DNA of 64,000 nucleotides from an uncultured Spirochaetota bacterium (GTDB lineage Bacteria > Spirochaetota > Brevinematia > Brevinematales > JAOACQ01). The notes beneath the pieces are model-generated. The model was not told the DNA's origin, did no database searches, and was given only the letters and a program-made list of their open reading frames with translations. The first letter of the stretch is position 1. The number at the start of each line of letters is the position of its first letter. Position numbers and translations under genes: made by a program. The stretch lies in NCBI GenBank assembly GCA_963768055.1, contig CAVYGN010000001.1, forward strand, positions 992,001 to 1,056,000, written 5' to 3'. Below are positions 9,067 to 55,562 of this stretch, piece by piece.

Positions 9067-10968
9067 TTACAATTCTTTCTTTTTGGTTTCGGGTGAATAA
9101 AAAAGTAAATACAACTTTTCTTTTTCATCCATAAACACATCAAATAATTCCGGATCAAAAGCCATGGCCCGTTCCTTAAACATTAAGTGAATTGCAGCCT
9201 TTATACTCATAGCCTTGCGATAAGGGCGGTCTGTTATGACCGAGTCCCAGAAATCAGCAATGGAAACTATCCTGGCCGCAAGTGGAATTTCTTTCCCTTT
9301 CAATTTTCTGGGATAACCGCTTCCATCCCACCGTTCCTGATGACAGTAAACGATTTCACGGATAAGGTCAATATTGGCAATTTTTTCGAGGATCCTTTTC
9401 CCTTCTATTGTATGTTCTTCTATATGTCTGCGTTCATCTGGCTTTAAAGGGCCTTTTTTATTTAAAACAGAATCCCTGGTCCCGATCTTGCCGATGTCAT
9501 GTACCAGTGCGCCCAGGTAAATATTCCTGAGATCATCCCCCTGAATACCAATCTTTTGGGCCAGAATCCTTGCGTAAGAACCGACCCGCTCCACGTGGCC
9601 GCCTGTATATTTATCTTTTGATTCGATTGCGGAAGCCATGGCAAGCAGAAAACTTTCCATCTGTAATTCAATCTGTTTCTTTGAATCTTCAACTTCTTTG
9701 AAAATACGGGAATTGCATATTGCCATAGTAAAAAGATTGCCAAGAGTCCTGAATACCTCCAGTATTTTCTCACTGTACATTCTTCCATCATTCCTCTTGC
9801 CGATAGCGAGGGCTCCGATAACATCATTGCGCCTGATCAGCGGTACTACTATGTCGGCCCGGGAAAGATTTTCAGGGACCCAACCGTTTACCCTCCTGTA
9901 TACTTCAATATCAATAATGAAATCAGAACGGATGGCCTGAATAGAAAGCGGTTCAAATGATAGAATGCCGGCATCAATAAATTCCGTCGAAGAACTGTTA
10001 AAATAAGTTTTTGATAAATCATTGAGTTGATCGCATAGAACCGATTCATCAAGTACTGACATAACTTCTTCACTGAACTCCCTGAGAATGCTTTGATAAT
10101 CAATGGGTCTTCCCAGTATGATCCTCTTAGCCCAGTCAGGAAAAAATGTTCCATAGATAAATAGTAGAATAATCATGAAAAGTGCGGCGCCGATATGTGC
10201 GTTTGCTTCTGAAATATAAAGCCAATGCCGGGATGTTTCCAGGAATAATGTGTAGCCTCCGACCATAAGAAGAAAAGTTAAAAAATAGCCGGAAAGATTC
10301 CCCACCAGGGAATTAAATTCCACCAGGCGGTAACGTAGGCTGGCATATCCAAAAATCCCGGCAAACAACGGGATGCAGAGAGCGCTGATAGGTCCATTAA
10401 AAAGATTGATCCCGAAATGGTAAAGATAATCCAACATGCTTAGAAAAAGAAAAAAATAGGCGATCATGATATATTTTGACCGGTTTTTATCAAGAGAATG
10501 AGCTTGATTATAATTTCTTATCAGCAGAATTATTGCATAAGCACCGAATATAGCAACCAAAAGGGGATTTATCATGAATTTCCAATTTCCACTGGCAAAA
10601 TACCCCCATGGGTAATGATACAATTGATTATTGATATACAAATCGGTAAACCAGAGAGTTGCTATATTTAATATGGATGCCGCAGAAAATAGGATAAGCA
10701 CAAGCCGTTGGGTTTTAAATCCGCAGATAATCCGGGCGGAAATCAACCCGGCTCCTGCGAGCAGTAAAGCCATTGTTAAATTGACCTTTGCGGCGAATAT
10801 TGTCCATTCCTGGAATTTGATTTCAACCCATAATCCTGCCGCTAATGCTGAGCTGAAAATGCAGGTCAGCAAAAACCATGGTTTTACCTTTTTGTCCTGG
10901 CTGAAACGGGTAATAAAGAACCCGACAAACAGGCTGATTACAGCCGAAACTAACAATTGCATTTTCAT
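9067..10968 (-). CDS. Membrane sensor (7TM) - GAF-like - HD-GYP phosphodiesterase
   Basis: N-terminal multi-TM region, GAF-like VVPLIRRNDVIGALAIG, then KDKYTGGHVERV, VHDIGK, HQERWDGSGYP. Confidence 0.9.
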   Translation of the reverse strand: MKMQLLVSAVISLFVGFFITRFSQDKKVKPWFLLTCIFSSALAAGLWVEIKFQEWTIFAAKVNLTMALLLAGAGLISARIICGFKTQRLVLILFSAASILNIATLWFTDLYINNQLYHYPWGYFASGNWKFMINPLLVAIFGAYAIILLIRNYNQAHSLDKNRSKYIMIAYFFLFLSMLDYLYHFGINLFNGPISALCIPLFAGIFGYASLRYRLVEFNSLVGNLSGYFLTFLLMVGGYTLFLETSRHWLYISEANAHIGAALFMIILLFIYGTFFPDWAKRIILGRPIDYQSILREFSEEVMSVLDESVLCDQLNDLSKTYFNSSSTEFIDAGILSFEPLSIQAIRSDFIIDIEVYRRVNGWVPENLSRADIVVPLIRRNDVIGALAIGKRNDGRMYSEKILEVFRTLGNLFTMAICNSRIFKEVEDSKKQIELQMESFLLAMASAIESKDKYTGGHVERVGSYARILAQKIGIQGDDLRNIYLGALVHDIGKIGTRDSVLNKKGPLKPDERRHIEEHTIEGKRILEKIANIDLIREIVYCHQERWDGSGYPRKLKGKEIPLAARIVSIADFWDSVITDRPYRKAMSIKAAIHLMFKERAMAFDPELFDVFMDEKEKLYLLFYSPETKKKEL

Positions 10969-11157: not shown

Positions 11158-11272
11158 TATTGTAATTCCAGAATCAACAACTACCGTAAAAAAATTTCTG
11201 CGTTGACAATTCGAGATATTGTAAAAACAATCTAAAATGTTATATAATTTAACCCGGGTAAGGCAGGATTAT

Positions 11273-16699
<5,427 letters not shown>

Positions 16700-16849
16700 A
16701 ATTATAATTTAGAAGAAACGAAAAGTCACTACCTCCCAATTTTCCCTTTAATGAAAAAAATGTTATAATTTATCTGAGTTGAAATATTTATATAAGTTTC
16801 CGGTACACTTTCCGTAACTTCTATATAAAATCATTTCATTAACTCATTC

Positions 16850-16880
16850 TATGTAATATAATTAAAGTAAATATTACATA
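16850..16880. promoter_or_regulatory. Palindromic operator-like site
   Basis: TATGTAATAT-N11-ATATTACATA, a perfect inverted repeat 29 nt upstream of ATG 16910. Confidence 0.6.
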
Positions 16881-16909
16881 TAATTCAAAGTTAAACGGAG
16901 TTATTTAAT

Positions 16910-18208
16910 ATGTGTTATGCAATACCCGGAAAGGTGAAATCCGTCAAGGACAAATGGGCTTATGTGGATTATTTCGGCGAGGAAAAAAGGGCTTACAATG
17001 AATTCCATGATCTTGTTCCCGGCGATTATATCTATGCCCAGGCGGGTATTGTAATAGAAAAAATCGCTTCTAAGGAAGCGAGGGCAATATTAAAGACCTG
17101 GAAAGAACTGTTCTTCTCTTTGAGAAAAAAGGATGAAGAATTGCTGAAAGACAGTATCCAGGCGGTTTCAGTGAGGACATCCGTAAGAAAACTGCTTGAT
17201 GAGGCCCTGGAAGGCCGGAAACTAACCTCAGACGAACTTTTTTCACTGATAAAAGCCGGTGATGCCGGCGATCTGGCGGACATGTACAGTACGGCAAATC
17301 TCATGAGGGCGAAATTTCATAAAAATTCCTGCTGCGTCCATGGGATAATAGAAATATCGAACTATTGCGCCAGGAACTGCGCATATTGCGGCATATCGTC
17401 TGAAGTCAGGAACATTACCCGCTACAGGATGTCGGAACAGGAAATAATAGAGACGGCGCACACAGCGGTAAATAAATACGGTTTTAAAGCCCTTGTACTT
17501 CAAAGCGGAGAAGATTGTTCCTATTCGGTCGATGAACTGGCTGATATTATACGCATTATCAAGAAAAACGATAACGTTCTGGTTTTTATCAGTTTCGGAG
17601 AAATCGGCTCCATAGGGCTTTCGACGCTTTATAAAGCCGGAGCGAGGGGACTTCTCCTGAGGTTTGAAACGTCGAACCCTGAACTTTATTCCAGGCTTCA
17701 CCCGGGGCACTTGCTGGAAGACCGCCTGAACGACCTCAGGAACGCTTATGATATGGGTTATCTTATAATCACGGGTTCACTGATAGGCCTGCCGGGCCAG
17801 ACTGATATGGACCGCTTGAACGATATCCTTCTTGCCAGGGAACTTCACACTGAAATGTACAGTTTCGGCCCGTTCCTTCCCGCTCCAGGTACGATCCTTG
17901 AAAGGAGCAGAAAACCGGATACGGATATGGTTTTAAAAACAATAGCCGTAACCCGGATCGCGGATGCAGAGAACGCTAAAATACTTGTAACGACGGGTTT
18001 CGAAACGCTCTCGAAAGATGCGAGGCGCCGAGGCCTTATGTCCGGCGCGAATTCGGTTATGATCAACCTGACGCCCGCACTCTATAAAAAAGATTATGCA
18101 ATCTATCCTAACCGGGCTCACAGGGATGAGGATCTTGGACGTCAGATCGAAGACACGCTTTTCCTTCTCAAAAATTTAGGAAGGGCCCCGACTGATCTGG
18201 GGTATTAA
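16910..18208 (+). CDS. HypC/HupF-domain fused to a HydE-like (BioB/HydE/PylB family) radical SAM enzyme
   Basis: N-terminus MCYAIPGKV...VDYFG...PGDYIYAQAG is HypC-like. Then GIIEISNYCARNCAYC (CxxxCxxC), VLQSGED, LLLRFETSNPELY..LHP, GLPGQT, GPFLP..GT, GANSVMINLTP and a YxxY motif. Confidence 0.85.
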   Translation: MCYAIPGKVKSVKDKWAYVDYFGEEKRAYNEFHDLVPGDYIYAQAGIVIEKIASKEARAILKTWKELFFSLRKKDEELLKDSIQAVSVRTSVRKLLDEALEGRKLTSDELFSLIKAGDAGDLADMYSTANLMRAKFHKNSCCVHGIIEISNYCARNCAYCGISSEVRNITRYRMSEQEIIETAHTAVNKYGFKALVLQSGEDCSYSVDELADIIRIIKKNDNVLVFISFGEIGSIGLSTLYKAGARGLLLRFETSNPELYSRLHPGHLLEDRLNDLRNAYDMGYLIITGSLIGLPGQTDMDRLNDILLARELHTEMYSFGPFLPAPGTILERSRKPDTDMVLKTIAVTRIADAENAKILVTTGFETLSKDARRRGLMSGANSVMINLTPALYKKDYAIYPNRAHRDEDLGRQIEDTLFLLKNLGRAPTDLGY

Positions 18209-18209
18209 C

Positions 18210-19142
18210 ATGAATCCGCCGATAATCTGTGTAAAAAATGTCAGCAAGAGCTATGGAGAGATCAGGGCTGTAAAAGATTTTTCATTCGATGTCGAAGAAG
18301 CCACATGTTTCGGCTTTTTAGGCCCTAACGGGGCCGGAAAAACAACAATGATGAAAATGATTTACGGTAAGGCTGAAAGAGACAAAAAGTCAAAAAGCGA
18401 AATAAGGGTTATGGGATTCGATCCCGCTAAAAAACCGCTTGAGATCAAGTCCATTTCCGGAGTCGTACCCCAGGAAGATAATCTTGACGAGGAATTGAGC
18501 GTATTCCAGAACCTTTATATCTATACGCGCTTTTACGCCATTCCCGCCGCTGAGTCAAGGAAAAGGATCGATTCTCTTCTGGATTTTATGGAACTTACAG
18601 ATAAAAAGAAGGCGATGATCCGTGAACTTTCCGGCGGGATGAAAAGACGCCTGATCATTGCCAGGGCTCTTCTGAATAATCCGAGGCTTCTTATTCTCGA
18701 CGAACCGACCACAGGCCTGGATCCGCAGGTAAGGCACCTTATCTGGGACAAGATAAGGAAATTAAAAAAAGAGGGAGTAACGATCCTGCTTACCACCCAT
18801 TATATGGAAGAAGCCTTTGAGATCTGCGACAATATAATAATCATGGATAAAGGGGTAAAAGTTCTCGAGGGAAATCCTCACAAGCTCATTTCAACCAACC
18901 TGGAAAAATACGCCCTTCAGATCATTAATAAAGAAAACGCTTCATGCATCGAGAAAAACCTGGATTTCAAGCTTATCAGGAAAGAGGAATCGGAGGAAAT
19001 AGTGGCGTATTATTCCAACGACCTGAAGTATCTTGAAGATATAGCCCTCTGCATGAAAACAGGAGATTTCTATATCCGGCAGTCCAACCTTGAAGACCTG
19101 TTCCTGAAAACAACGGGGAGGAGCCTCAATGAAGACCAATAA
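18210..19142 (+). CDS. ABC-2 exporter ATP-binding protein (NodI-like)
   Basis: GPNGAGKTT, GVVPQEDNLD, LSGGMKRRL, LILDEPTTGLDPQ, LTTHYMEEA. Confidence 0.92.
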   Translation: MNPPIICVKNVSKSYGEIRAVKDFSFDVEEATCFGFLGPNGAGKTTMMKMIYGKAERDKKSKSEIRVMGFDPAKKPLEIKSISGVVPQEDNLDEELSVFQNLYIYTRFYAIPAAESRKRIDSLLDFMELTDKKKAMIRELSGGMKRRLIIARALLNNPRLLILDEPTTGLDPQVRHLIWDKIRKLKKEGVTILLTTHYMEEAFEICDNIIIMDKGVKVLEGNPHKLISTNLEKYALQIINKENASCIEKNLDFKLIRKEESEEIVAYYSNDLKYLEDIALCMKTGDFYIRQSNLEDLFLKTTGRSLNEDQ

Positions 19143-19914
19143 ACCCTGTGTTCCCTCTCTTTTCTGGAGGATATGGAGCGTGTGGTACCGTCACATGCGT
19201 GTTTACTCAAGGAATATATTGACGAACGGGCTGCCTCCTTTCCTGGATCCACTGATATTCCTGGCAGGCATAGGCATTGGACTGGGCATCTTCATAGGAA
19301 AGATGGAAGGCATTTCATATATTGAATTCCTTGCCTCGGGGCTGCTTGTTTCCACTGCGATGTTCACATCGTCTTTCGAGTGCTCCTTCGGCACTTTCAT
19401 CAGGCTTGAGTTCGACAAAGTTTATGACGGTATGATAGCCGCCCCCCTTACTGCTGAAAACATATTTGTCGGCGAGATCCTATGGGCAGGAGCCAAGGGT
19501 TTCTTCTTTTCCATGGCCGTACTGATAATAATAAAGATCTTCGGGTTTATTCCTGGCCCTATGAGCTTTTTCACTCCCTTTGTAGGGATGCTTACAGGGC
19601 TTATGTTTGCTTCTTTAGCCCTGTTGGTCACATCCTTTGTAAAAACTATAGACCAGTTCAATTTCCTCTTTACCGGCTTCCTTTCTCCGATGTTCTTCTT
19701 TTCGGGTATATTCTTTTCGCTCCAGAATATGCCGCCTGCGATACGGGTCCTGGCTGAGTTCCTGCCGCTAACGCACACAGTGCGCCTGGCGAGGGCCCTT
19801 TGCTTCGGAAGATTCGGTAACCTTGTTTTTCTGGATCTTTTGTATACGGCCGTTTTCATATTACTTTTCGCATACCTGGGAGTTTCCAGGCTCAAAAGAA
19901 AGGTCATAGATTGA
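19129..19914 (+). CDS. ABC-2 exporter permease (NodJ-like)
   Basis: VWYRH, SYIEFLASG, GEILWA, PMFFFSGIFF, LPLTHTVRLAR. Confidence 0.9.
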   Translation: MKTNKPCVPSLFWRIWSVWYRHMRVYSRNILTNGLPPFLDPLIFLAGIGIGLGIFIGKMEGISYIEFLASGLLVSTAMFTSSFECSFGTFIRLEFDKVYDGMIAAPLTAENIFVGEILWAGAKGFFFSMAVLIIIKIFGFIPGPMSFFTPFVGMLTGLMFASLALLVTSFVKTIDQFNFLFTGFLSPMFFFSGIFFSLQNMPPAIRVLAEFLPLTHTVRLARALCFGRFGNLVFLDLLYTAVFILLFAYLGVSRLKRKVID

Positions 19915-19933
19915 CCTGAGGCGGAGGCGGAAA

Positions 19934-20782
19934 ATGCACTACTATAAATACCATGGCCTTGGCAACGATTACATTGTCATAGATCCCTCTCAGGTAAAAA
20001 TTCTGCCCGATAAAAATAATATACGCCTTATCTGCAGCCGGAATTACGGGATAGGTTCCGACGGCATCCTTTACGGCCCGTTATTCGAAAACGGTTCGAT
20101 CGTTTTAAAGATATTCAATCCGGACGGGAGCGAGGCTGAAAAGAGCGGCAACGGGGTAAGGATTTTTTCAAGATTTTTATATGAAAAAGGATATGTGGAA
20201 AAGAGGAATTTTTCTTTTTTAACAAAAGGCGGAAAGGTTGAAATCGAGATAATGGATGAAAACGCGCGCATGATCAAGGTTAACATGGGCAAATATACCT
20301 TTCATAGCGAAAAAATACCGGTATCGGGGATGCAACGCGAGGTGATAAACGAAGAGATCGTCCTGGAGGGAAACTCCTACCGGATGACATGCGTTTCCGT
20401 CGGCAATCCTCACTGCGTCATACCCCTGCCTGATATTTCCGAAAACCTAGCCAGGAGGCTCGGGCCGATAGTTGAAAATTATCCGCTTTTCCCTAACAGG
20501 ATCAATATGCAGCTTTTAAATGTCGTCGACAGGAACAATATAAGGATCGAGATATGGGAGAGGGGCGCCGGTTATACCCTGGCGTCGGGCAGCAGCAGCT
20601 GCGCCGCCTCGCTCGCCGCTTTCAGGCTCGGCATGGTCGACAGCCATGTAAATGTCAAAATGCCGGGCGGGATCATCGGGATAGATATAAAAGGGGAATA
20701 CGTCGAAATGACCGGCCCTGTCGAGGGAGTGGCCGAGGGAAATTTTTCGGGGGAATTTCTGGGGAAGATGAAGCTGGGGTAA
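19934..20782 (+). CDS. dapF: Diaminopimelate epimerase-fold protein with Ser at both catalytic Cys positions
   Basis: KYHGLGNDY, GIGSDG, IFNPDGSEAEKSGNG, SVGNPHCV, WERGAGYTLASGSSSCA. Confidence 0.8.
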   Translation: MHYYKYHGLGNDYIVIDPSQVKILPDKNNIRLICSRNYGIGSDGILYGPLFENGSIVLKIFNPDGSEAEKSGNGVRIFSRFLYEKGYVEKRNFSFLTKGGKVEIEIMDENARMIKVNMGKYTFHSEKIPVSGMQREVINEEIVLEGNSYRMTCVSVGNPHCVIPLPDISENLARRLGPIVENYPLFPNRINMQLLNVVDRNNIRIEIWERGAGYTLASGSSSCAASLAAFRLGMVDSHVNVKMPGGIIGIDIKGEYVEMTGPVEGVAEGNFSGEFLGKMKLG

Positions 20783-20861
20783 ACAAGGATTACCGCAAAG
20801 ATCGCAAAGAATTACAGGGAGAAACGGAGAAGCGGAGAGTTTTTTAAAATATACGGCCTTT

Positions 20862-21057
20862 ATTCGATGGAACCGCGTACAAGGTGAAGCATGCGTTTAC
20901 AGTAAAATTAGTAAAATACCCGAAGCGTACGATTACCTGGAGAAAGCAGTTAATGCGGGATACAAGGATTATGAGTGGATTCTTAAAGATCCCGACCTGG
21001 AAAACCCGAGGAATGATAATGGTTGGGAGGCTTTTTTACGACGGCCTGAAAAAGTAG
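20862..21057 (+). pseudogene. Remnant of a TPR protein C-terminal domain
   Basis: The frame from 20889 reads ACVYSKISKIPEAYDYLEKAVNAGYKDYEWILKDPDLENPRNDNGWEAF. There is no in-frame ATG back to the stop at 20769-71. Confidence 0.65.
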
Positions 21058-21082
21058 GACGAAAAGCTCTATTTCTTTCCTG

Positions 21083-21359
21083 CTGGATTCGAAACAATAT
21101 TCAGTTTTTATATGTAGTCAATTTTTATCTCGCATTTATGAAGAAAACATAGAACTGCCATCGAAAAAAGGCGAAGCAAGCGTTTCGTCCAAGACCGCTA
21201 ATAGTATTTAACCGATTCTTATAGATAATAAAAAATTCTTCAATTAAAAAAGTATTCAATCAAACGCTTGCCGCCGTTTTGAGATGATGCAGTTCAAGTT
21301 TTCGAATCCGGAGAGATAAAAATTGACTACATAAAAGCCGGATGTTGTTTGAACGGCCC
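21083..21359. repeat. Long fold-back inverted repeat with a MITE-type terminus (copy D)
   Basis: About 100-bp imperfect arms with a perfect 21-bp core (21111-21131 vs 21313-21333). The right end reads gggccgttcaaacaac on the minus strand and abuts TTA. Confidence 0.8.
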
Positions 21360-22229
21360 TTACTTCCCACTCTGCAGTATATTCTGGATCGTATTGCTGA
21401 TCGATTCGGCGTCTTCGGCAGCGTTCAGGCTGAGCGCGGCATACATGGCCCTTTTGTAATAATAGATCGATTCATCCTTCCTGCCGAGCTTGAAACAATC
21501 GCCGGCTATCTTTTTTAAATCGTCGAGTATGGCCGCGGTTTTTTCCGCGATCTTGTCGTTTTTAAGGGCCGACAGGTAATTTGTAAGCGCGCTGCCGTAA
21601 TTCAGCTTGTCGTCATAGACTTCGCCGAGATAGTAGTAATTATCCCCAAGGGAGTCGTAAACCTTTCCCCCCTCGTTAATCTGCCTCGCTTTTTCAAGCC
21701 ATCCCGCGGCTTCGTCCAATCTTTTGAGTTTTCTATAGGCTATTCCAATGTTATTATATGCGCCGGCCCTGTCCTGGTCGTTTGCCGCCGATCCGTAGGC
21801 CATCTGGTAATATTTGAGCGCGGTTTCATATCCATTCGTGTTTTCATAAGCCTTCTCGTAAAATTTACCGATGGTAAGATAAATTATAAAGTCGTACTCT
21901 TTTGTGTTTTCATAACCCTTGATAGAGTATGCCGTGAATATATAGTTTGAAGCTTCGGTATAATTTGCCTGTCGCAGCGACAGTTCGGAAAGCTTCTGGT
22001 AAATGCTTATCACATAGCCGGTGTTGTCTATGCTGTAACTTTCCGTGAGCGCGTCAAGGTAATATGACCTGGCGGACTTGAAATTTCCGGACCTGTACTC
22101 CTTAAGTCCGAGAGAAACCAGGTCGGAAACTTCTTTTTCAATAGTATTCCTGACTGAAGGGTTTACTGGGGGTGAACCGCATGAAAACAGCATCAATAAA
22201 GGTATAATTATAACAATCGTTTTTTTCAT
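21360..22229 (-). CDS. TPR lipoprotein
   Basis: Lipobox LFSC. AYNNIGIAYRKL, NYYYLGEVY. Confidence 0.85.
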   Translation of the reverse strand: MKKTIVIIIPLLMLFSCGSPPVNPSVRNTIEKEVSDLVSLGLKEYRSGNFKSARSYYLDALTESYSIDNTGYVISIYQKLSELSLRQANYTEASNYIFTAYSIKGYENTKEYDFIIYLTIGKFYEKAYENTNGYETALKYYQMAYGSAANDQDRAGAYNNIGIAYRKLKRLDEAAGWLEKARQINEGGKVYDSLGDNYYYLGEVYDDKLNYGSALTNYLSALKNDKIAEKTAAILDDLKKIAGDCFKLGRKDESIYYYKRAMYAALSLNAAEDAESISNTIQNILQSGK

Positions 22230-30890: not shown

Positions 30891-32261
30891 TTACTTCTTT
30901 TTAGTATTTTCCAGGGCTAGGAGGAGTTTCTGGTCTTCGATGATCTTTTCGATGGATCTGGTTTTATCCATCTGGAGATCGACCTGGATTGGATATTTCA
31001 GGGTTTCCATCTTTCCGTTTATATAGATCATAACGACAGGCCTCAGGGTCTGCGAGTAATCGACTTTAATGACCTGGGCGACTTCCTTGGTGTTGAGCAT
31101 AACAAAAGAATCGATGGGGACCAGCGGTTTGCCGTAGAGCCGCTTCGGCATCCGGTTAATAAATTCTACGGCGAACCTGGGATTGAATTTAGTGCCGGAT
31201 AGATTCTGAATTGAAAGAAAAGAACTGGAAACGGGGAACGCCTTTCTGTACGGAGTGTCCGAAGTAAGGGCATCGTAAGTATCTGCGATTGTTATCACCT
31301 GGACGAACTCTCCTATTTTGTCCCTGGCGATATGGAATGGATAACCCATGCCGTCATAGTTCTCATGGTGGTAAAGCAGGCAAGCCTCGACTTCCTTGTC
31401 GAAATTTTTCTGGTTTTGGATGATCTCGTAGCCGAGCTGGGGATGTTTTTGAATCATATCCCATTCTTTTTCTTCAAGGGCTCCTGTTTTATTCAATATC
31501 TCCTTGGGAATAAGTATCTTTCCAAGATCATGCAGAATGGCGCCCATGCCGAGAATTTTCAGTTTGTCATGGCTGTACAGCATCTCTTTTCCGAATAGAA
31601 TGGAAAGCATCGCCACATTTATGCTGTGAGTGTATGTATAATTGTCGAAATCCTTTAATTTCAGCATGTTCAGGATCGTATATGTTTCGCTGATCGAGAT
31701 TTCGCCGATAAGCTGTTCTATGATGTTCTCAATTTCTTTTTTAGGCAGGGGCGTTTTCTTGAGGATGCTGTTTTCTATTTCCTTGGCCAGGAAAAGGGAC
31801 TTTTCAATAAGCTGGTTTGAAACGATGTATTTATCAAGACGATAAAAAGTCGAGGAATATACGGGTTTATTATAGTTGAATTTGTGGATATCCTGGTCTT
31901 CGAGGCTTTTAATGATATCGGCAGTGATCACTTCGCCGCTCCCTACGATTTTCCTGCCGTCGGGAGTGAAGGCGTCCCCCTTTAATGTTACGCCGGGATA
32001 AAGGTCCTTGGTTTCCATGGTGATAAGTTTATAAGATTTCTCGACTTTCATTTCCTCGGGGGTATAAAACAGCACTTCCAGCCTTTCCGACTTGAGCTGC
32101 TCGATGAGGCTCTCGGTTACAGGTTCGTCCTTATTGATCTTTTTGACCCCTCCGCTTGTAAAAGCGTCGGCCTCCAGTATCATTCCCGGAAGAAGGGTTT
32201 CGACATGTATCTCGAGAAGTACCTGGTCGTTATTCGGATTCTCGGAGATATCGGGAACCAT
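30891..32261 (-). CDS. HD-GYP phosphodiesterase with a duplicated N-terminal domain
   Basis: DNYTYTHSINVA, LHDLGK, HHENYDGMGYP, IADTYDALTSDTPYR. Two copies of an LxPG..L..DAFT..G unit. Confidence 0.9.
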   Translation of the reverse strand: MVPDISENPNNDQVLLEIHVETLLPGMILEADAFTSGGVKKINKDEPVTESLIEQLKSERLEVLFYTPEEMKVEKSYKLITMETKDLYPGVTLKGDAFTPDGRKIVGSGEVITADIIKSLEDQDIHKFNYNKPVYSSTFYRLDKYIVSNQLIEKSLFLAKEIENSILKKTPLPKKEIENIIEQLIGEISISETYTILNMLKLKDFDNYTYTHSINVAMLSILFGKEMLYSHDKLKILGMGAILHDLGKILIPKEILNKTGALEEKEWDMIQKHPQLGYEIIQNQKNFDKEVEACLLYHHENYDGMGYPFHIARDKIGEFVQVITIADTYDALTSDTPYRKAFPVSSSFLSIQNLSGTKFNPRFAVEFINRMPKRLYGKPLVPIDSFVMLNTKEVAQVIKVDYSQTLRPVVMIYINGKMETLKYPIQVDLQMDKTRSIEKIIEDQKLLLALENTKKK

Positions 32262-52049: not shown

Positions 52050-55000
52050 ATGTCTAAATCCATGGTGATGATGGATGGTAATAACGCGGCGTCGCATGTA
52101 GCTTACGCTTTTTCCGAGGTAGCTGCTATTTATCCGATAACACCTTCATCGACAATGGCTGAATTTTGCGACGATTGGTCGAGCGAAGGAAAAAAGAACA
52201 TGTTCGGCGACGTAGTTAAAATAAGTGAAATGCAGTCGGAAGGCGGAGCCGCAGGTGCCGTTCACGGCTCGCTGCAGGCGGGTGCGCTTACAACGACTTT
52301 CACATGCTCGCAGGGGCTTTTGCTTATGATCCCCAACATGTATAAAATTGCAGGAGAACTACTGCCCGGCGTATTTCATGTCAGTGCGAGAACGGTTGCG
52401 GCCCATGCGCTTTCGATTTTCGGTGACCATTCGGATGTTATGGCCTGCAGGCAGACAGGTTTTGCAATGCTGGCTTCAAGTTCGGTACAGGAAATACTCG
52501 ATATCGCTCCTGTGGCTCATCTGGCGGCAATAAAAACAAGAATTCCTTTTTTGCATTTCTTTGACGGTTTCAGGACCTCCGCCGAAGTTCAGAAGGCTGA
52601 AGCCCTCGAATATACGGATTATGAAAAACTCCTTGATAAAAAGGCCCTCGACGAATTCAAGAAAAGGGCATTATCGCCCGAGAAACCGGTTACCAGGGGA
52701 ACGGCCCAGAACCCCGATATCTTTTTCCAGGCGAAAGAATCTTCAAACAAGTTTTACGATACTGTTCCGGACGCTGTGGAAGCATATATGCAGGAAATGA
52801 AAAAGCTTACCGGAAGGGAATATCATCCTTTCAATTATTATGGGGCTAAAGACGCTGAAAATATCATCGTAGCCATGGGTTCGGTTACCGACCTTGCAGA
52901 ACCCGTTATTGATTATTTATTAAAAAAAGGTGAAAAGATCGGCATAATCACAGTTCATCTCTACAGGCCTTTCTCTGCAAAATATTTCTTTAATGTTCTT
53001 CCCAAAACTGTTAAGAGAATCGCGGTTCTTGACAGGAGTAAAGAACCAGGTGCTATGGGAGATCCTCTTTACCTGGATGTAAGGAACATTTTTTATAACA
53101 GGGAAAACGCGCCTATGATTATCGGCGGCAGGTTTGGGTTGGCCTCCAAGGATACCACTCCCGAGCAGATTATTGCGGTTTACAATAATCTAAAGACGAA
53201 AGAACCTAAAGATCAATTTACTGTCGGAATCGTAGACGATGTCACATTCAAATCGCTTCCTGTCGGTGAAAGTGTCGACGTATGCCCCGAAGGCACTTTC
53301 GAAGCTAAATTTTACGGAATAGGTTCGGATGGGACTGTAGGCGCGAATAAGAATTCAATCAAAATAATCGGCGACAACACTGAAAAATACGCTCAAGCGT
53401 ATTTCGCTTATGATTCAAAAAAATCTGGCGGAATAACAATTTCCCATCTCCGTTTCGGTGATAAGCCTATCCGGCTGCCTTATTATGTAACCAATCCCGG
53501 TTTTGTGGCCTGCCATGTGAGTTCGTATCTTGATAAATACGATATGATAAGGGGATTGAAGAGGGGCGGAACGTTCCTGCTCAACAGCATCTGGAATGAA
53601 AAGCAGGTTGCAGAGCATATACCTGCTTATATGAAAAAGTATATGGCTGAAAACGATATTCAATTTTATGTTATAAACGCGACAGAGATCGCCGAAGGGC
53701 TGGGGCTGGGCGGAAGAACCAACACTATAATGCAGTCGGCATTTTTCAAACTCGCAAATGTCATCCCGTACGCTGACGCGCTCAAGTTTATGAAAAAGGC
53801 CATTTATAAGACCTATGGAAGAAAGGGAGACGACATTGTAAATATGAACTATGCCGCGATAGAAAAGGGCGGAGAAGTTAAAAAAGTAGATATCTCTGCT
53901 AAGTGGAAAGAATTGAACGTAATGGAAGAGAAAAACAAAGATCTGCCTGATTTTGTAAAGAATATAATGATACCTATGAACGCACAGGAAGGCGATGATC
54001 TTCCTGTAAGTAGTTTTTTGGGGATCGAGGATGGAACATTCCCGACCGCAACAACCCAGTATGAAAAAAGAGGCATAGCTGTCAATGTTCCCGAATGGTT
54101 GCCGGATTATTGTACTCAATGCAATCAATGTTCGTTTGTCTGTCCGCATGCTGTGATAAGGCCTTTCCTGATAGATGAAAAGGAAATGAAGGGCCTGACC
54201 GGAGGAACAAAGACATTAAAAGCCGTTGGAAAAGGTTTTGAAAATTTCCAGTATAAAATCCAGGTCAGTGTGATGGATTGCACAGGCTGTGGAAATTGCG
54301 CGGATGTATGCCCAGGGAAACAGAATAATAAGGCTCTTGTTATGAAACCGCTGGAAAGTCAGAAAGAAGAGATTGTCCGCTGGAATTATATTTCTGAAAA
54401 TGTAACATATAAAGACACCTTGATGAGTAAATCGACCCTTAAGGGAAGTCAGTTTGCGCGGCCTTTGTTTGAATACTCGGGTTCCTGCGCCGGATGCGGG
54501 GAGACGCCTTATATTAAAGTTATCACTCAGCTCTTCGGTGAAAGAATGGTCGTAGCTAACGCAACGGGTTGTTCTTCGATTTATGGAGGTTCAGCTCCGG
54601 CAATGCCTTACTGTGTCAATTCGGAAGGGCATGGTCCGGCATGGGCTAATTCGCTCTTCGAGGACAATGCCGAATATGGTTTCGGCATGGTGATAGCTGA
54701 CCGCCATCAAAAGGACCGGATTGAGACCCTTATGAAAAAAGCCATTGAAAAAGGGGTTTCTGAGGAAATCAAATCCGTTTTCGAAGAATGGATGCAAAGC
54801 AGAAATGATAGTGAAAAATCAAAAGTTTCCGCTGATAAGGTAAAACTTTTGCTGAATAAAGAAAAATCAGGCATCCTCGGCGATATAAAAAATCTTGAGA
54901 ATTACCTTATAAAAAAATCTCACTGGGTTATCGGCGGAGACGGCTGGGCCTATGATATCGGATACGGCGGCCTCGACCATGTTCTGTCAATGGGCGAAGA

Positions 55001-55562
55001 CATAAATTTGCTTGTTCTGGACACTGAGGTTTATTCCAACACCGGCGGCCAGGCTTCGAAATCCACTCCTACCGCAGCCATAGCCAGGTTCGCCGCTTCA
55101 GGTAAAAAGACCCGTAAAAAAGACCTTGGAATGATGGCTATCAGCTACGGGTATGTTTATGTTGCACAGGTCGCTATGGGGGCTAATAAAGTGCAATTCC
55201 TGAAGGCTATTTCCGAAGCCGAAAGCTATCCGGGGCCTTCCCTTATAATAGCTTATTCCCCCTGTATCCAGCAGGGTATTCATGCCGGTATGGGAAAATC
55301 CCAGGAAGAAGAAAAGTTAGCTGTGGATTCAGGCTATTGGCATCTCTACCGCTATAACCCTCTCCTTGAGAGTGAAGGTAAAAACCCGTTTACCCTGGAT
55401 TCGAAAGAGCCTGTTTCAAGCTACAGGAATTTTATGATGGGTGAAATCAGATTCTCCTCGCTCGTTAAAATATTTCCTGATAAGGCTGAAGAACTCCTCA
55501 AATCGGCTGAATTGAATGCAAATATACGATACCGGAATTACAAGAAGCTTTCCGGACAATAA
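52050..55562 (+). CDS. nifJ: Pyruvate:ferredoxin (flavodoxin) oxidoreductase
   Basis: YPITPSS, EMQSEGGAAG, CTQCNQCSFVCP, CTGCGNCADVCP, SCAGCGE, GGDGWAYDIG. Confidence 0.97.
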   Translation: MSKSMVMMDGNNAASHVAYAFSEVAAIYPITPSSTMAEFCDDWSSEGKKNMFGDVVKISEMQSEGGAAGAVHGSLQAGALTTTFTCSQGLLLMIPNMYKIAGELLPGVFHVSARTVAAHALSIFGDHSDVMACRQTGFAMLASSSVQEILDIAPVAHLAAIKTRIPFLHFFDGFRTSAEVQKAEALEYTDYEKLLDKKALDEFKKRALSPEKPVTRGTAQNPDIFFQAKESSNKFYDTVPDAVEAYMQEMKKLTGREYHPFNYYGAKDAENIIVAMGSVTDLAEPVIDYLLKKGEKIGIITVHLYRPFSAKYFFNVLPKTVKRIAVLDRSKEPGAMGDPLYLDVRNIFYNRENAPMIIGGRFGLASKDTTPEQIIAVYNNLKTKEPKDQFTVGIVDDVTFKSLPVGESVDVCPEGTFEAKFYGIGSDGTVGANKNSIKIIGDNTEKYAQAYFAYDSKKSGGITISHLRFGDKPIRLPYYVTNPGFVACHVSSYLDKYDMIRGLKRGGTFLLNSIWNEKQVAEHIPAYMKKYMAENDIQFYVINATEIAEGLGLGGRTNTIMQSAFFKLANVIPYADALKFMKKAIYKTYGRKGDDIVNMNYAAIEKGGEVKKVDISAKWKELNVMEEKNKDLPDFVKNIMIPMNAQEGDDLPVSSFLGIEDGTFPTATTQYEKRGIAVNVPEWLPDYCTQCNQCSFVCPHAVIRPFLIDEKEMKGLTGGTKTLKAVGKGFENFQYKIQVSVMDCTGCGNCADVCPGKQNNKALVMKPLESQKEEIVRWNYISENVTYKDTLMSKSTLKGSQFARPLFEYSGSCAGCGETPYIKVITQLFGERMVVANATGCSSIYGGSAPAMPYCVNSEGHGPAWANSLFEDNAEYGFGMVIADRHQKDRIETLMKKAIEKGVSEEIKSVFEEWMQSRNDSEKSKVSADKVKLLLNKEKSGILGDIKNLENYLIKKSHWVIGGDGWAYDIGYGGLDHVLSMGEDINLLVLDTEVYSNTGGQASKSTPTAAIARFAASGKKTRKKDLGMMAISYGYVYVAQVAMGANKVQFLKAISEAESYPGPSLIIAYSPCIQQGIHAGMGKSQEEEKLAVDSGYWHLYRYNPLLESEGKNPFTLDSKEPVSSYRNFMMGEIRFSSLVKIFPDKAEELLKSAELNANIRYRNYKKLSGQ

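Follow-up and report, generated by a model that had tools for sequence, protein, structure and literature searches.

A widespread clade of predicted HydE-derived maturases with a built-in HypC-like domain

HydE and HypC belong to separate cofactor assembly lines, and both of them handle iron that bears CO and CN. In a stretch of 64,000 nucleotides from an uncultured Spirochaetota bacterium (assembly GCA_963768055.1, contig CAVYGN010000001.1, positions 992,001 to 1,056,000), which is called the window throughout, a single open reading frame (ORF) at 16910-18208 combines parts resembling both, and the question is what a HypC-like domain could do on the same chain as a HydE-type radical S-adenosylmethionine (SAM) barrel. 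An initial annotation, made from the letters of the DNA, had proposed either a hybrid maturase whose HypC domain presents an iron/thiol substrate to the radical SAM domain, or a repurposed enzyme whose product is exported. As a whole, this interpretation is partly supported. Judged by sequence comparison, the ORF belongs to a distinct and widespread clade of putative HydE-derived maturases with a built-in HypC-like domain. We favour, with a probability of about 0.5, the reading that in these maturases the thiolate of the tethered HypC-like domain receives and carries an Fe-CO/CN unit, the target of delivery being left to several possible clients.

Architecture, distribution, and origin of the fused protein

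The ORF is uninterrupted on the forward strand, starts with ATG, has a GGAG 9 nt 5' of the start codon, and encodes 432 residues. Its translation starts with MCYAIPGKV and includes VDYFG, PGDYIYAQAGIVI, NSCCVHGIIEISNYCARNCAYCG, LLRFET, GPFLP, GANSVMINLTP, and YAIY, and all of the motifs on which the initial annotation was built are present. The combination of the two domains on one chain has been confirmed by profile searches. Pfam assigns residues 1-64 to HupF_HypC (PF01455, 52.3 bits, gathering threshold 28.5), residues 147-305 to Radical_SAM (PF04055, 60.9 bits, gathering threshold 29.5), and residues 323-401 to BATS (22.7 bits, gathering threshold 22.2), and the best NCBIfam model is HydE (TIGR03956). 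The NCBIfam model of HypC (TIGR00074) reaches 39.9 bits and stays below its cutoff of 48, while the Pfam model passes. In a phmmer search of PDB sequences, the Thermotoga maritima HydE (TmHydE) aligns end to end over residues 93-427 with 210.8 bits, and the Thermococcus kodakarensis HypC (2z1c) over residues 1-67 with 36.7 bits. The AlphaFold2 model of the whole chain, which was built on 26 relatives, has a mean predicted local distance difference test (pLDDT) score of 90.9 and a predicted template modelling (pTM) score of 0.91. It contains five strands within residues 7-52, a long helix of residues 54-84, and then the barrel, and in this model the HypC-like domain and the barrel are predicted to be placed rigidly relative to each other. 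The best Foldseek match is TmHydE (3cix; E-value 1.4e-32, target-normalised TM score 0.93, root-mean-square deviation 1.5 Å, 337 columns), followed by PylB (target-normalised TM score 0.87) and BioB (0.84-0.87).

PylB, BioB, and the HmdB/HcgA-type enzymes share with the fused protein the full triosephosphate isomerase (TIM) barrel of radical SAM enzymes together with a BATS region. However, the fused protein scores far under their NCBIfam cutoffs (122.6 vs 348.2 bits for PylB, 104.3 vs 225 for BioB, and 79.4 vs 320.9 for HmdB), and the tree places it neither with PylB nor with BioB but nests it within HydE. Membership in the PylB, BioB, or HmdB families was therefore rejected. Rejected as well was the reading as a pseudogene or relic, because the ORF is intact and because comparison with the fused genes of the related loci L001 and L002 gives nonsynonymous divergences (dN) of 0.13-0.18, saturated synonymous divergences (dS) above 2, and dN/dS ratios of 0.04-0.06. 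The fusion is under strong purifying selection in the subclade of the window.

When 5.8 billion proteins were searched, 119 of the best 120 matches contained both PF04055 and PF01455 at a length of about 432 aa. The exception is P0003, which is the public gene call for the ORF of the window itself (345 aa; 17171-18208) and begins at residue 88 with a GTG read as Met. Because this start omits the HypC-like domain, the fusion cannot be recognised from the public annotation of the locus. Taking one genome per species, the fusion is encoded in 388 of 413 candidate stretches. Its occurrence in the genomes of 388 species and in nearly all of the best matches means that it is not an artefact of this assembly, a doubt that the initial annotation had raised. 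Among the 80 loci kept for analysis are 41 of Omnitrophota, 7 of Margulisiibacteriota, 6 of Spirochaetota, and a few each of Planctomycetota, Elusimicrobiota, and lineages of candidate status such as WOR-1 and Saganbacteria; some are unassigned. The nearest relatives are found in metagenome-assembled genomes of Brevinematales, with 79% and 73% identity. Public databases already contain the fused proteins, variously labelled as HydE, HypC family, biotin synthase, or radical SAM protein. No paper on a HypC-HydE fusion was found in the literature searched, from which subscription journals were excluded, and searches by taxon for hydrogenase maturation genes likewise brought up nothing.

For the phylogeny, the N-terminal domains were removed from 74 HydE-type barrels, which had been drawn from 50%-identity representatives, the best database matches, and locus L003, and Escherichia coli BioB was added as outgroup. 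In these quick-search trees, with support from the Shimodaira-Hasegawa-like approximate likelihood ratio test (SH-aLRT), one clade holds 21 fused and 3 unfused rows with a support of 99 both with and without BioB, and it is this clade that lies within HydE in the outgroup tree. Of the unfused rows, two have V or L as their first residue and resemble fragments. From the sequences we conclude that the fusion arose once, within HydE. Its sister group (support 87) is made up of four HydE proteins, each of which has an N-terminal Se_S_carrier domain (PF11823).

These four proteins (P0154, P0157, P0246, and P0264) all exceed the HydE cutoff (277.7-309.5 bits) and have a conserved Cys in the extra domain, which is of the DUF3343 type; they are a second instance of a small thiol-carrier-like domain joined to HydE. 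Like the HydE-HydG fusion P0150, they resemble the fused clade in that HydE has repeatedly been joined to HydG or to Cys-bearing carrier-like domains. They and P0150 differ from it in having the canonical Arg at the site of TmHydE R54 and no HypC domain, and no characterisation of P0150 or of the Se_S_carrier-HydE proteins was found in the literature searched. In another three HydE proteins (P0145, P0170, and P0184), which score 283-354 bits, the barrel is preceded by some 100 aa without any Pfam match. Within the fused family itself, 17 of the 19 relatives found among proteins of 757-2160 aa are single HypC-HydE-HydG chains of 805-946 aa (domain scores were computed for two of them), and one such chain is encoded in the Omnitrophota chromosome of L023.

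The HypC-like domain and the pocket of the barrel

The N-terminal part resembles HypC, HybG, and HupF (PF01455; 2z1c and 3vyr) in its Met-Cys start, the MCxxxPG motif, and an oligonucleotide/oligosaccharide-binding (OB) fold of about 50 residues that is followed by a helix. Stand-alone HypC proteins have about 75-90 aa, whereas the domain is here part of a 432-aa chain. Cys2 stands directly behind the initiator Met, as in HypC/HupF, and is invariant in all alignments: in 26 of 26 aligned relatives and in all 16 fused N-termini that were aligned with the E. coli HypC translated from L081. In E. coli HypC, His51 in the xVLVHVGxA strand is regarded as important. The corresponding residue is Gln44 in the protein of the window, as had been noted from the sequence at the outset, and none of the 16 fused N-termini has a His there; the site is occupied by Gln in the subclade of the window, while the remaining N-termini have Tyr, Thr, or Ala. 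The alignment of 26 sequences shows invariant MCYAIPG, Q44, N139, C141-C142-V-H144-G, cluster cysteines, and GRAPTD, and also the residues W64, F68, F69, L71, and D75 of the linker are invariant. When the N-terminal 85 aa were used as query against proteins of 46-149 aa, only 2 of 14 candidates matched, in a search that requires shared 5-residue words and might let distant free forms escape. Both matches sit on tiny contigs of 563 and 1622 nt. Therefore, a HypC-like domain of the fused type hardly ever seems to be free-standing. According to PMC11565642, HypC carries Fe(CN)2CO on Cys2 and has been proposed to deliver Fe(CN)2CO alone to the apo large subunit.

The barrel shares its fold and the CX3CX2C cluster motif with TmHydE (PDB 3cix and 7o1o). 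In addition to the extra domain with its linker helix, it differs in lacking the cysteines of the auxiliary cluster (C311, C319, and C322 of TmHydE), at whose positions the protein of the window has no Cys in the PDB alignment. The residues that matter for catalysis have been kept. E58, M224, M291, Y306, R159, and E161 of TmHydE are retained in all 24 clade rows, the first four corresponding to E148, M316, M384, and Y399 of the window protein, and T268 and T269 are conserved in the fused protein as well. At the K309 site the window protein has Arg, and 23 of the 24 clade rows have Lys or Arg. According to PMC11826987, M224 and M291 hold Fe(I)(CO)2(CN)S units, and cysteine is broken down with the participation of E58 and K309. 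The same paper names R54, T134, R155, and T269 as the contacts of the cyanides in the modelled dimer (section 3.4).

At three of these last residues and at H52, the clade departs from the 50 other HydE rows with which it was compared. Position 142 (H52 in TmHydE) is Cys in 24/24 clade rows and in none of the others, which have His in 25 and Tyr in 8 rows. Position 144 (R54) is His in 24/24 rows, compared with Arg in 47/50; position 226 (T134) is Phe in 21/24, compared with Thr in 47/50; and position 247 (R155) is Gly or Ala in 24/24, compared with Arg in 42/50, the window protein having Gly. Three of the four CN-contacting residues are thus replaced throughout the clade (H144, F226, and G247 in the window protein), and the fourth is kept as T362. 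Together with the conservation of E58, M224, and the other residues named above, this indicates that the catalytic apparatus has been retained while three of four product contacts have been changed. By alignment, the pocket is taken to have gained a Cys (C142) and a His (H144) where canonical HydE has product-side residues. The extra CC pair seen in front of the cluster motif in the initial annotation is only in part a feature of the family, because C142 is invariant but C141 is Cys in only 12 of 21 fused rows.

The single clade, the pocket signature shared by its members, the invariant Cys2 in the absence of the HypC His, the conserved linker, and the confident model together argue that the two halves are functionally coupled, and the linkage to HydG, which extends to covalent fusion, suggests that the synthon made by HydG is still the substrate of the barrel. 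In the reading that we prefer, the barrel would still take up the HydG-made [Fe(Cys)(CO)2(CN)] and perform HydE-type radical chemistry. The remodelled pocket with C142 and H144 would then hand an Fe-carbonyl-cyanide unit over to the Cys2 thiolate, a transfer that would replace the Arg and Thr contacts by which the product is otherwise held. The HypC-like domain with Cys2 would be a carrier in cis that brings the unit to its client, which could be HydF/HydA or the large subunit of a [NiFe] hydrogenase. Such a role would be in line with the Fe(CN)2CO load of HypC Cys2, with the Cys-bearing Se_S_carrier domain of the sister group, and with the near absence of free copies of the HypC-like domain. 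The hybrid maturase of the initial annotation fits with the monophyly, the remodelled pocket, and the modelled domain placement; the single steps of the mechanism are our inference.

Alternatively, the two halves could be independent of each other, an ordinary HypC serving the [NiFe] and an ordinary HydE the [FeFe] enzyme, and could have been merged as neighbours because hypC follows hypA and hydE precedes hydG. The intact catalytic residues of HydE agree with such a side-by-side fusion. However, independent halves would not need the changes at C142, H144, F226, and G/A247, which track the fusion (24/24 rows vs 0/50). The Gln, Tyr, Thr, or Ala at the His51 site of every fused N-terminus aligned, the conserved linker, the pTM score obtained for the whole chain, and the persistence of the fusion as one clade over several phyla also speak against it, so that we regard this explanation as unlikely.

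Gene neighbourhoods and candidate clients

The 80 loci and an equal-sized excerpt of the window gave 81 neighbourhoods of 8 kb to either side of the fusion, whose 1175 ORFs were clustered and named by Pfam and NCBIfam. The usual gene order is a Fer4_22 subunit, an FAD/NAD subunit, an Oxidored_q6 small subunit, a NiFeSe large subunit, the HycI protease, HypA, the fusion, and then Rex and/or HydG. Some loci continue with a sensor kinase, a NuoF-like protein, Fe_hyd_lg_C (HydA), and a NuoE-like protein. In a second arrangement, membrane subunits of the Mrp/Mbh type are followed by HycI, HypA, and the fusion. Genes related to [NiFe] hydrogenases are present in 71/81 neighbourhoods, and in 65 of these they include the large or small subunit, HycI, or HypA. 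HydG is found in 35/81, HydA in 9/81, and either of the two in 43/81. Both gene sets occur together in 41/81, [NiFe] genes only in 30/81, and the HydG/HydA side only in 2/81. Neither set is seen in 8/81, namely the window, L001, L002, L042, L043, L044, L053, and the 2.3-kb L076. The statement that hydrogenase context is missing thus holds for the window, L001, and L002 but not for the family. The genes are tightly packed, with a median gap of 6.5 bp between hypA and the fusion (n=38), of 5 bp between hycI and the fusion (n=13), of -1 bp between the fusion and hydG on the same strand (n=13), and of 98 bp between the fusion and rex (n=22). The radical SAM gene next to the fusion was identified as HydG by scores of 482 and 444 bits against a cutoff of 312. 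Within these neighbourhoods, neither sequence motifs nor phmmer with E. coli seeds revealed HypD, HypE, or HypF, a motif search for HydF found no match, and phmmer with E. coli seeds detected no other HypC-like ORF. HypB occurs in a single case and a second HydE in only 1/81 (L003). In this Omnitrophota locus, HydG and a canonical HydE (359.6 bits) are encoded about 6 kb upstream of the fusion.

In most cases, the HypA gene that precedes the fusion encodes a minimal protein of about 80 aa, in which the nickel-binding MHE N-terminus is kept and both CxxC pairs of the zinc domain are missing (e.g. L004:7741-7986, L021:7756-7998, and L007:7647-7889). The HypA cluster is present in 48/81 neighbourhoods, and of 14 HypA sequences inspected, the CxxC pairs occur in L005:282-641 and L013:2120-2452 only. 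Another conserved ORF, which is about 639 aa long and without Pfam or NCBIfam match (L040:10723-12642 and six other loci) recurs downstream of genes for HydG, the FAD/NAD subunit, and GltD-like proteins, and in five loci also of a Glu_synthase-like gene.

The neighbourhoods are where the side-by-side fusion finds most of its arguments. The gene stands at the junction of two sets, with the large subunit, hycI, and hypA upstream at gaps of about 5-6 bp and hydG or rex and then HydABC-type genes downstream. Both sets are present in half of the neighbourhoods (41/81), no other HypC-like ORF was found in the loci, and a second HydE is seen in only one of them.

The same gene order would also suit a maturase that crosses from one pathway to the other. 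In this scenario, HydG provides the synthon, the barrel strips off the cysteine, and Cys2 passes a mononuclear Fe-carbonyl-cyanide, or at least CO, to the [NiFe] large subunit, which is finished by HypA and HycI. The fusion is the last or next-to-last gene of runs of large subunit, hycI, and hypA, hydG follows directly in 13 loci, and in 30 neighbourhoods the [NiFe] genes are found with neither hydG nor hydA in view. HypD, HypE, and HypF were not found in any of the 81 neighbourhoods, a separate canonical HydE is kept in L003, and the pocket residues fitted to the dinuclear product have been replaced. In addition, PMC11565642 states that the source from which [NiFe] hydrogenases obtain CO under anoxic conditions "remains elusive". 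However, hypDEF may lie elsewhere in these genomes, and a HydE is indispensable to those organisms in which HydA-type [FeFe] genes follow the fusion (9/81). HydG makes an Fe(CO)2(CN) synthon, yet the [NiFe] site requires Fe(CN)2(CO), and the equivalent of HypC His51 has been lost. We therefore consider a dedicated cross-pathway [NiFe] maturase to be quite improbable. Still more speculative, and to be doubted for the time being, is the proposal that HypC-HydE(-HydG) constitutes the core of a second, tyrosine-based route to the [NiFe] Fe-carbonyl-cyanide in strict anaerobes. HydG would place CO and CN on the iron, the barrel would release a mononuclear unit onto Cys2, and the HypC-like domain would load the [NiFe] large subunit that is encoded a few genes upstream, leaving the last steps to the minimal HypA and HycI. 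If true, this would explain the origin of the anoxic CO ligand and would link the two hydrogenase assembly lines.

Returning to the preferred carrier reading with its several possible clients, some points weigh against it. The synteny is stronger with [NiFe] genes (71/81) than with hydG/hydA (43/81), which suits the rival explanations at least equally well. Because L003 has a canonical HydE too, the fusion is not always the sole HydE, and the two types coexist in at least one genome. On the HydE equivalog model, TIGR03956, the window protein scores 221.3 bits and remains under the cutoff of 254.6, while the other fused proteins score 214.6-283.2 bits and fall on both sides of it. The roles of R54, T134, and R155 come from a quantum mechanics/molecular mechanics model of the proposed T. 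maritima product and not from a solved product complex. Finally, because hydG, hydA, hydF, hyp, and hydrogenase genes were not found among the larger ORFs of the window, a role in hydrogenase maturation is extrapolated there from the relatives.

The locus in the window and what the fusion may mean

A scan of the window's 52 larger ORFs yielded no hydrogenase, hyd, or hyp gene. Instead, the fusion is followed on the same strand by the ATPase and permease of an ATP-binding cassette (ABC) transporter of the ABC-2 type and by dapF (Table 1). The latter matches TIGR00652 with 240.7 bits (cutoff 114.65). The loci L001 and L002 share this downstream order, but according to the cluster map their fusion is not preceded by the 1820-aa gene that lies upstream in the window. 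In the lineage of the window, the gene would have moved from the hydrogenase genes to its place before the exporter and dapF.

Table 1. Positions of features discussed in the text. Positions with the prefix L003 belong to the Omnitrophota locus, all others to the window; Tm, TmHydE numbering.
Feature	Position	Strand	Basis or remark
Whole ORF: HypC-like domain, linker helix, HydE-type radical SAM/BATS barrel	16910..18208	+	432 aa; Pfam, NCBIfam, AlphaFold2
HupF/HypC-like OB-fold domain, residues 1-64	16910..17101	+	Pfam PF01455, PDB 2z1c match, AlphaFold2 strands 7-52
Cys2 codon, N-terminal Cys of the HypC-like domain (MCYAIPG)	16913..16915	+	invariant in alignments
Gln44, at the site of E. coli HypC His51	17039-17041	+	alignment
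Long helix, residues 54-84: HypC C-terminal helix and conserved linker	17069..17161	+	alignment, AlphaFold2
Clade signature C141-C142-V143-H144, start of barrel strand 1	17330..17341	+	residue counts
Radical_SAM core, residues 147-305; F226 (Tm T134), R246/G247 (Tm D154/R155), R251 (Tm R159)	17348..17824	+	Pfam, PDB alignment
CX3CX2C radical SAM cluster motif (C153, C157, C160)	17366..17389	+	aligns with TmHydE cluster motif
M316 (Tm M224), just upstream of the BATS region	17855-17857	+	alignment
BATS region, residues 323-401; T361/T362 (Tm T268/T269), M384 (Tm M291), Y399 (Tm Y306)	17876..18112	+	Pfam, PDB alignment
R402 (Tm K309), just downstream of the BATS region		+	alignment
1820-aa protein with Ser/Thr kinase, AAA_16, TPR, GAF, sigma-54 interaction, and HTH_8 domains	11237-16699	+	directly upstream of the maturase gene
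NodI/DrrA-like ABC ATPase	18210-19142	+	starts 1 base past the maturase stop
NodJ-like ABC-2 permease	19129-19914	+	overlaps the ATPase gene; profile match
DapF (diaminopimelate epimerase)	19934..20782	+	last gene of the same-strand run; TIGR00652
Pyruvate:ferredoxin oxidoreductase (PFOR)	52050-55562		found in the ORF scan of the window
HydG of L003	L003:6-1163		
Canonical HydE of L003	L003:1373-2473		
Fusion of L003	L003:8001-9317		

These neighbours are the basis of the second proposal of the initial annotation, which would apply to the Brevinematales subclade of the window only. The enzyme would have been repurposed and would make or modify a small molecule or metal complex that is exported by the NodIJ/DrrAB-like ABC-2 transporter. 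The immediate succession of the genes, their common order in L001 and L002, and the absence of hydrogenase genes from the 64 kb of the window and from the 17 kb covered for the two loci would be in agreement with this. However, an ABC ATPase directly 3' of the fusion is found in only 3 of 73 readable cases, which are the window, L001, and L002. Adjoining the fusion only in the lineage of the window, the ABC-2 genes do not belong to the conserved system. The protein of the window also retains every clade signature and catalytic residue, other loci from Brevinematales or spirochaetes (L028, L050, and L068) have [NiFe] context, and the PFOR of the window suggests a ferredoxin-based fermentation, which is usually paired with hydrogenases encoded elsewhere in the genome. 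We consider the export proposal, which rests on the transporter as neighbour, very improbable.

In the 210 nt between the gene of the 1820-aa sigma-54 activator and the fusion (16700-16909), inspection by eye did not show any convincing match to the sigma-54 promoter TGGCAC-N5-TTGC, and a scan of 16500-21500 for sigma-70 promoters and terminators gave counts not above those of shuffled sequence. Elsewhere the window encodes three HD_5 (HD-GYP-type) proteins (1810-2814, 9067-10968, and 30891-32261), one of them with a receiver and one with a GAF domain, and has Borrelia_P83 and FliD genes, which agree with a spirochaete origin.

For practical purposes, the fused clade calls attention to inconsistent public labels and, at the locus of the window, to a HypC domain that has been cut off in the public gene call. 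In biological terms, the assembly lines of [NiFe] and [FeFe] hydrogenases may be physically linked by the fusion. The fused clade offers a testable handle on how the product of HydE leaves the enzyme and reaches its acceptor. It likewise offers a testable handle on where [NiFe] hydrogenases obtain their CO ligand in the absence of oxygen, a source that is called elusive in PMC11565642.

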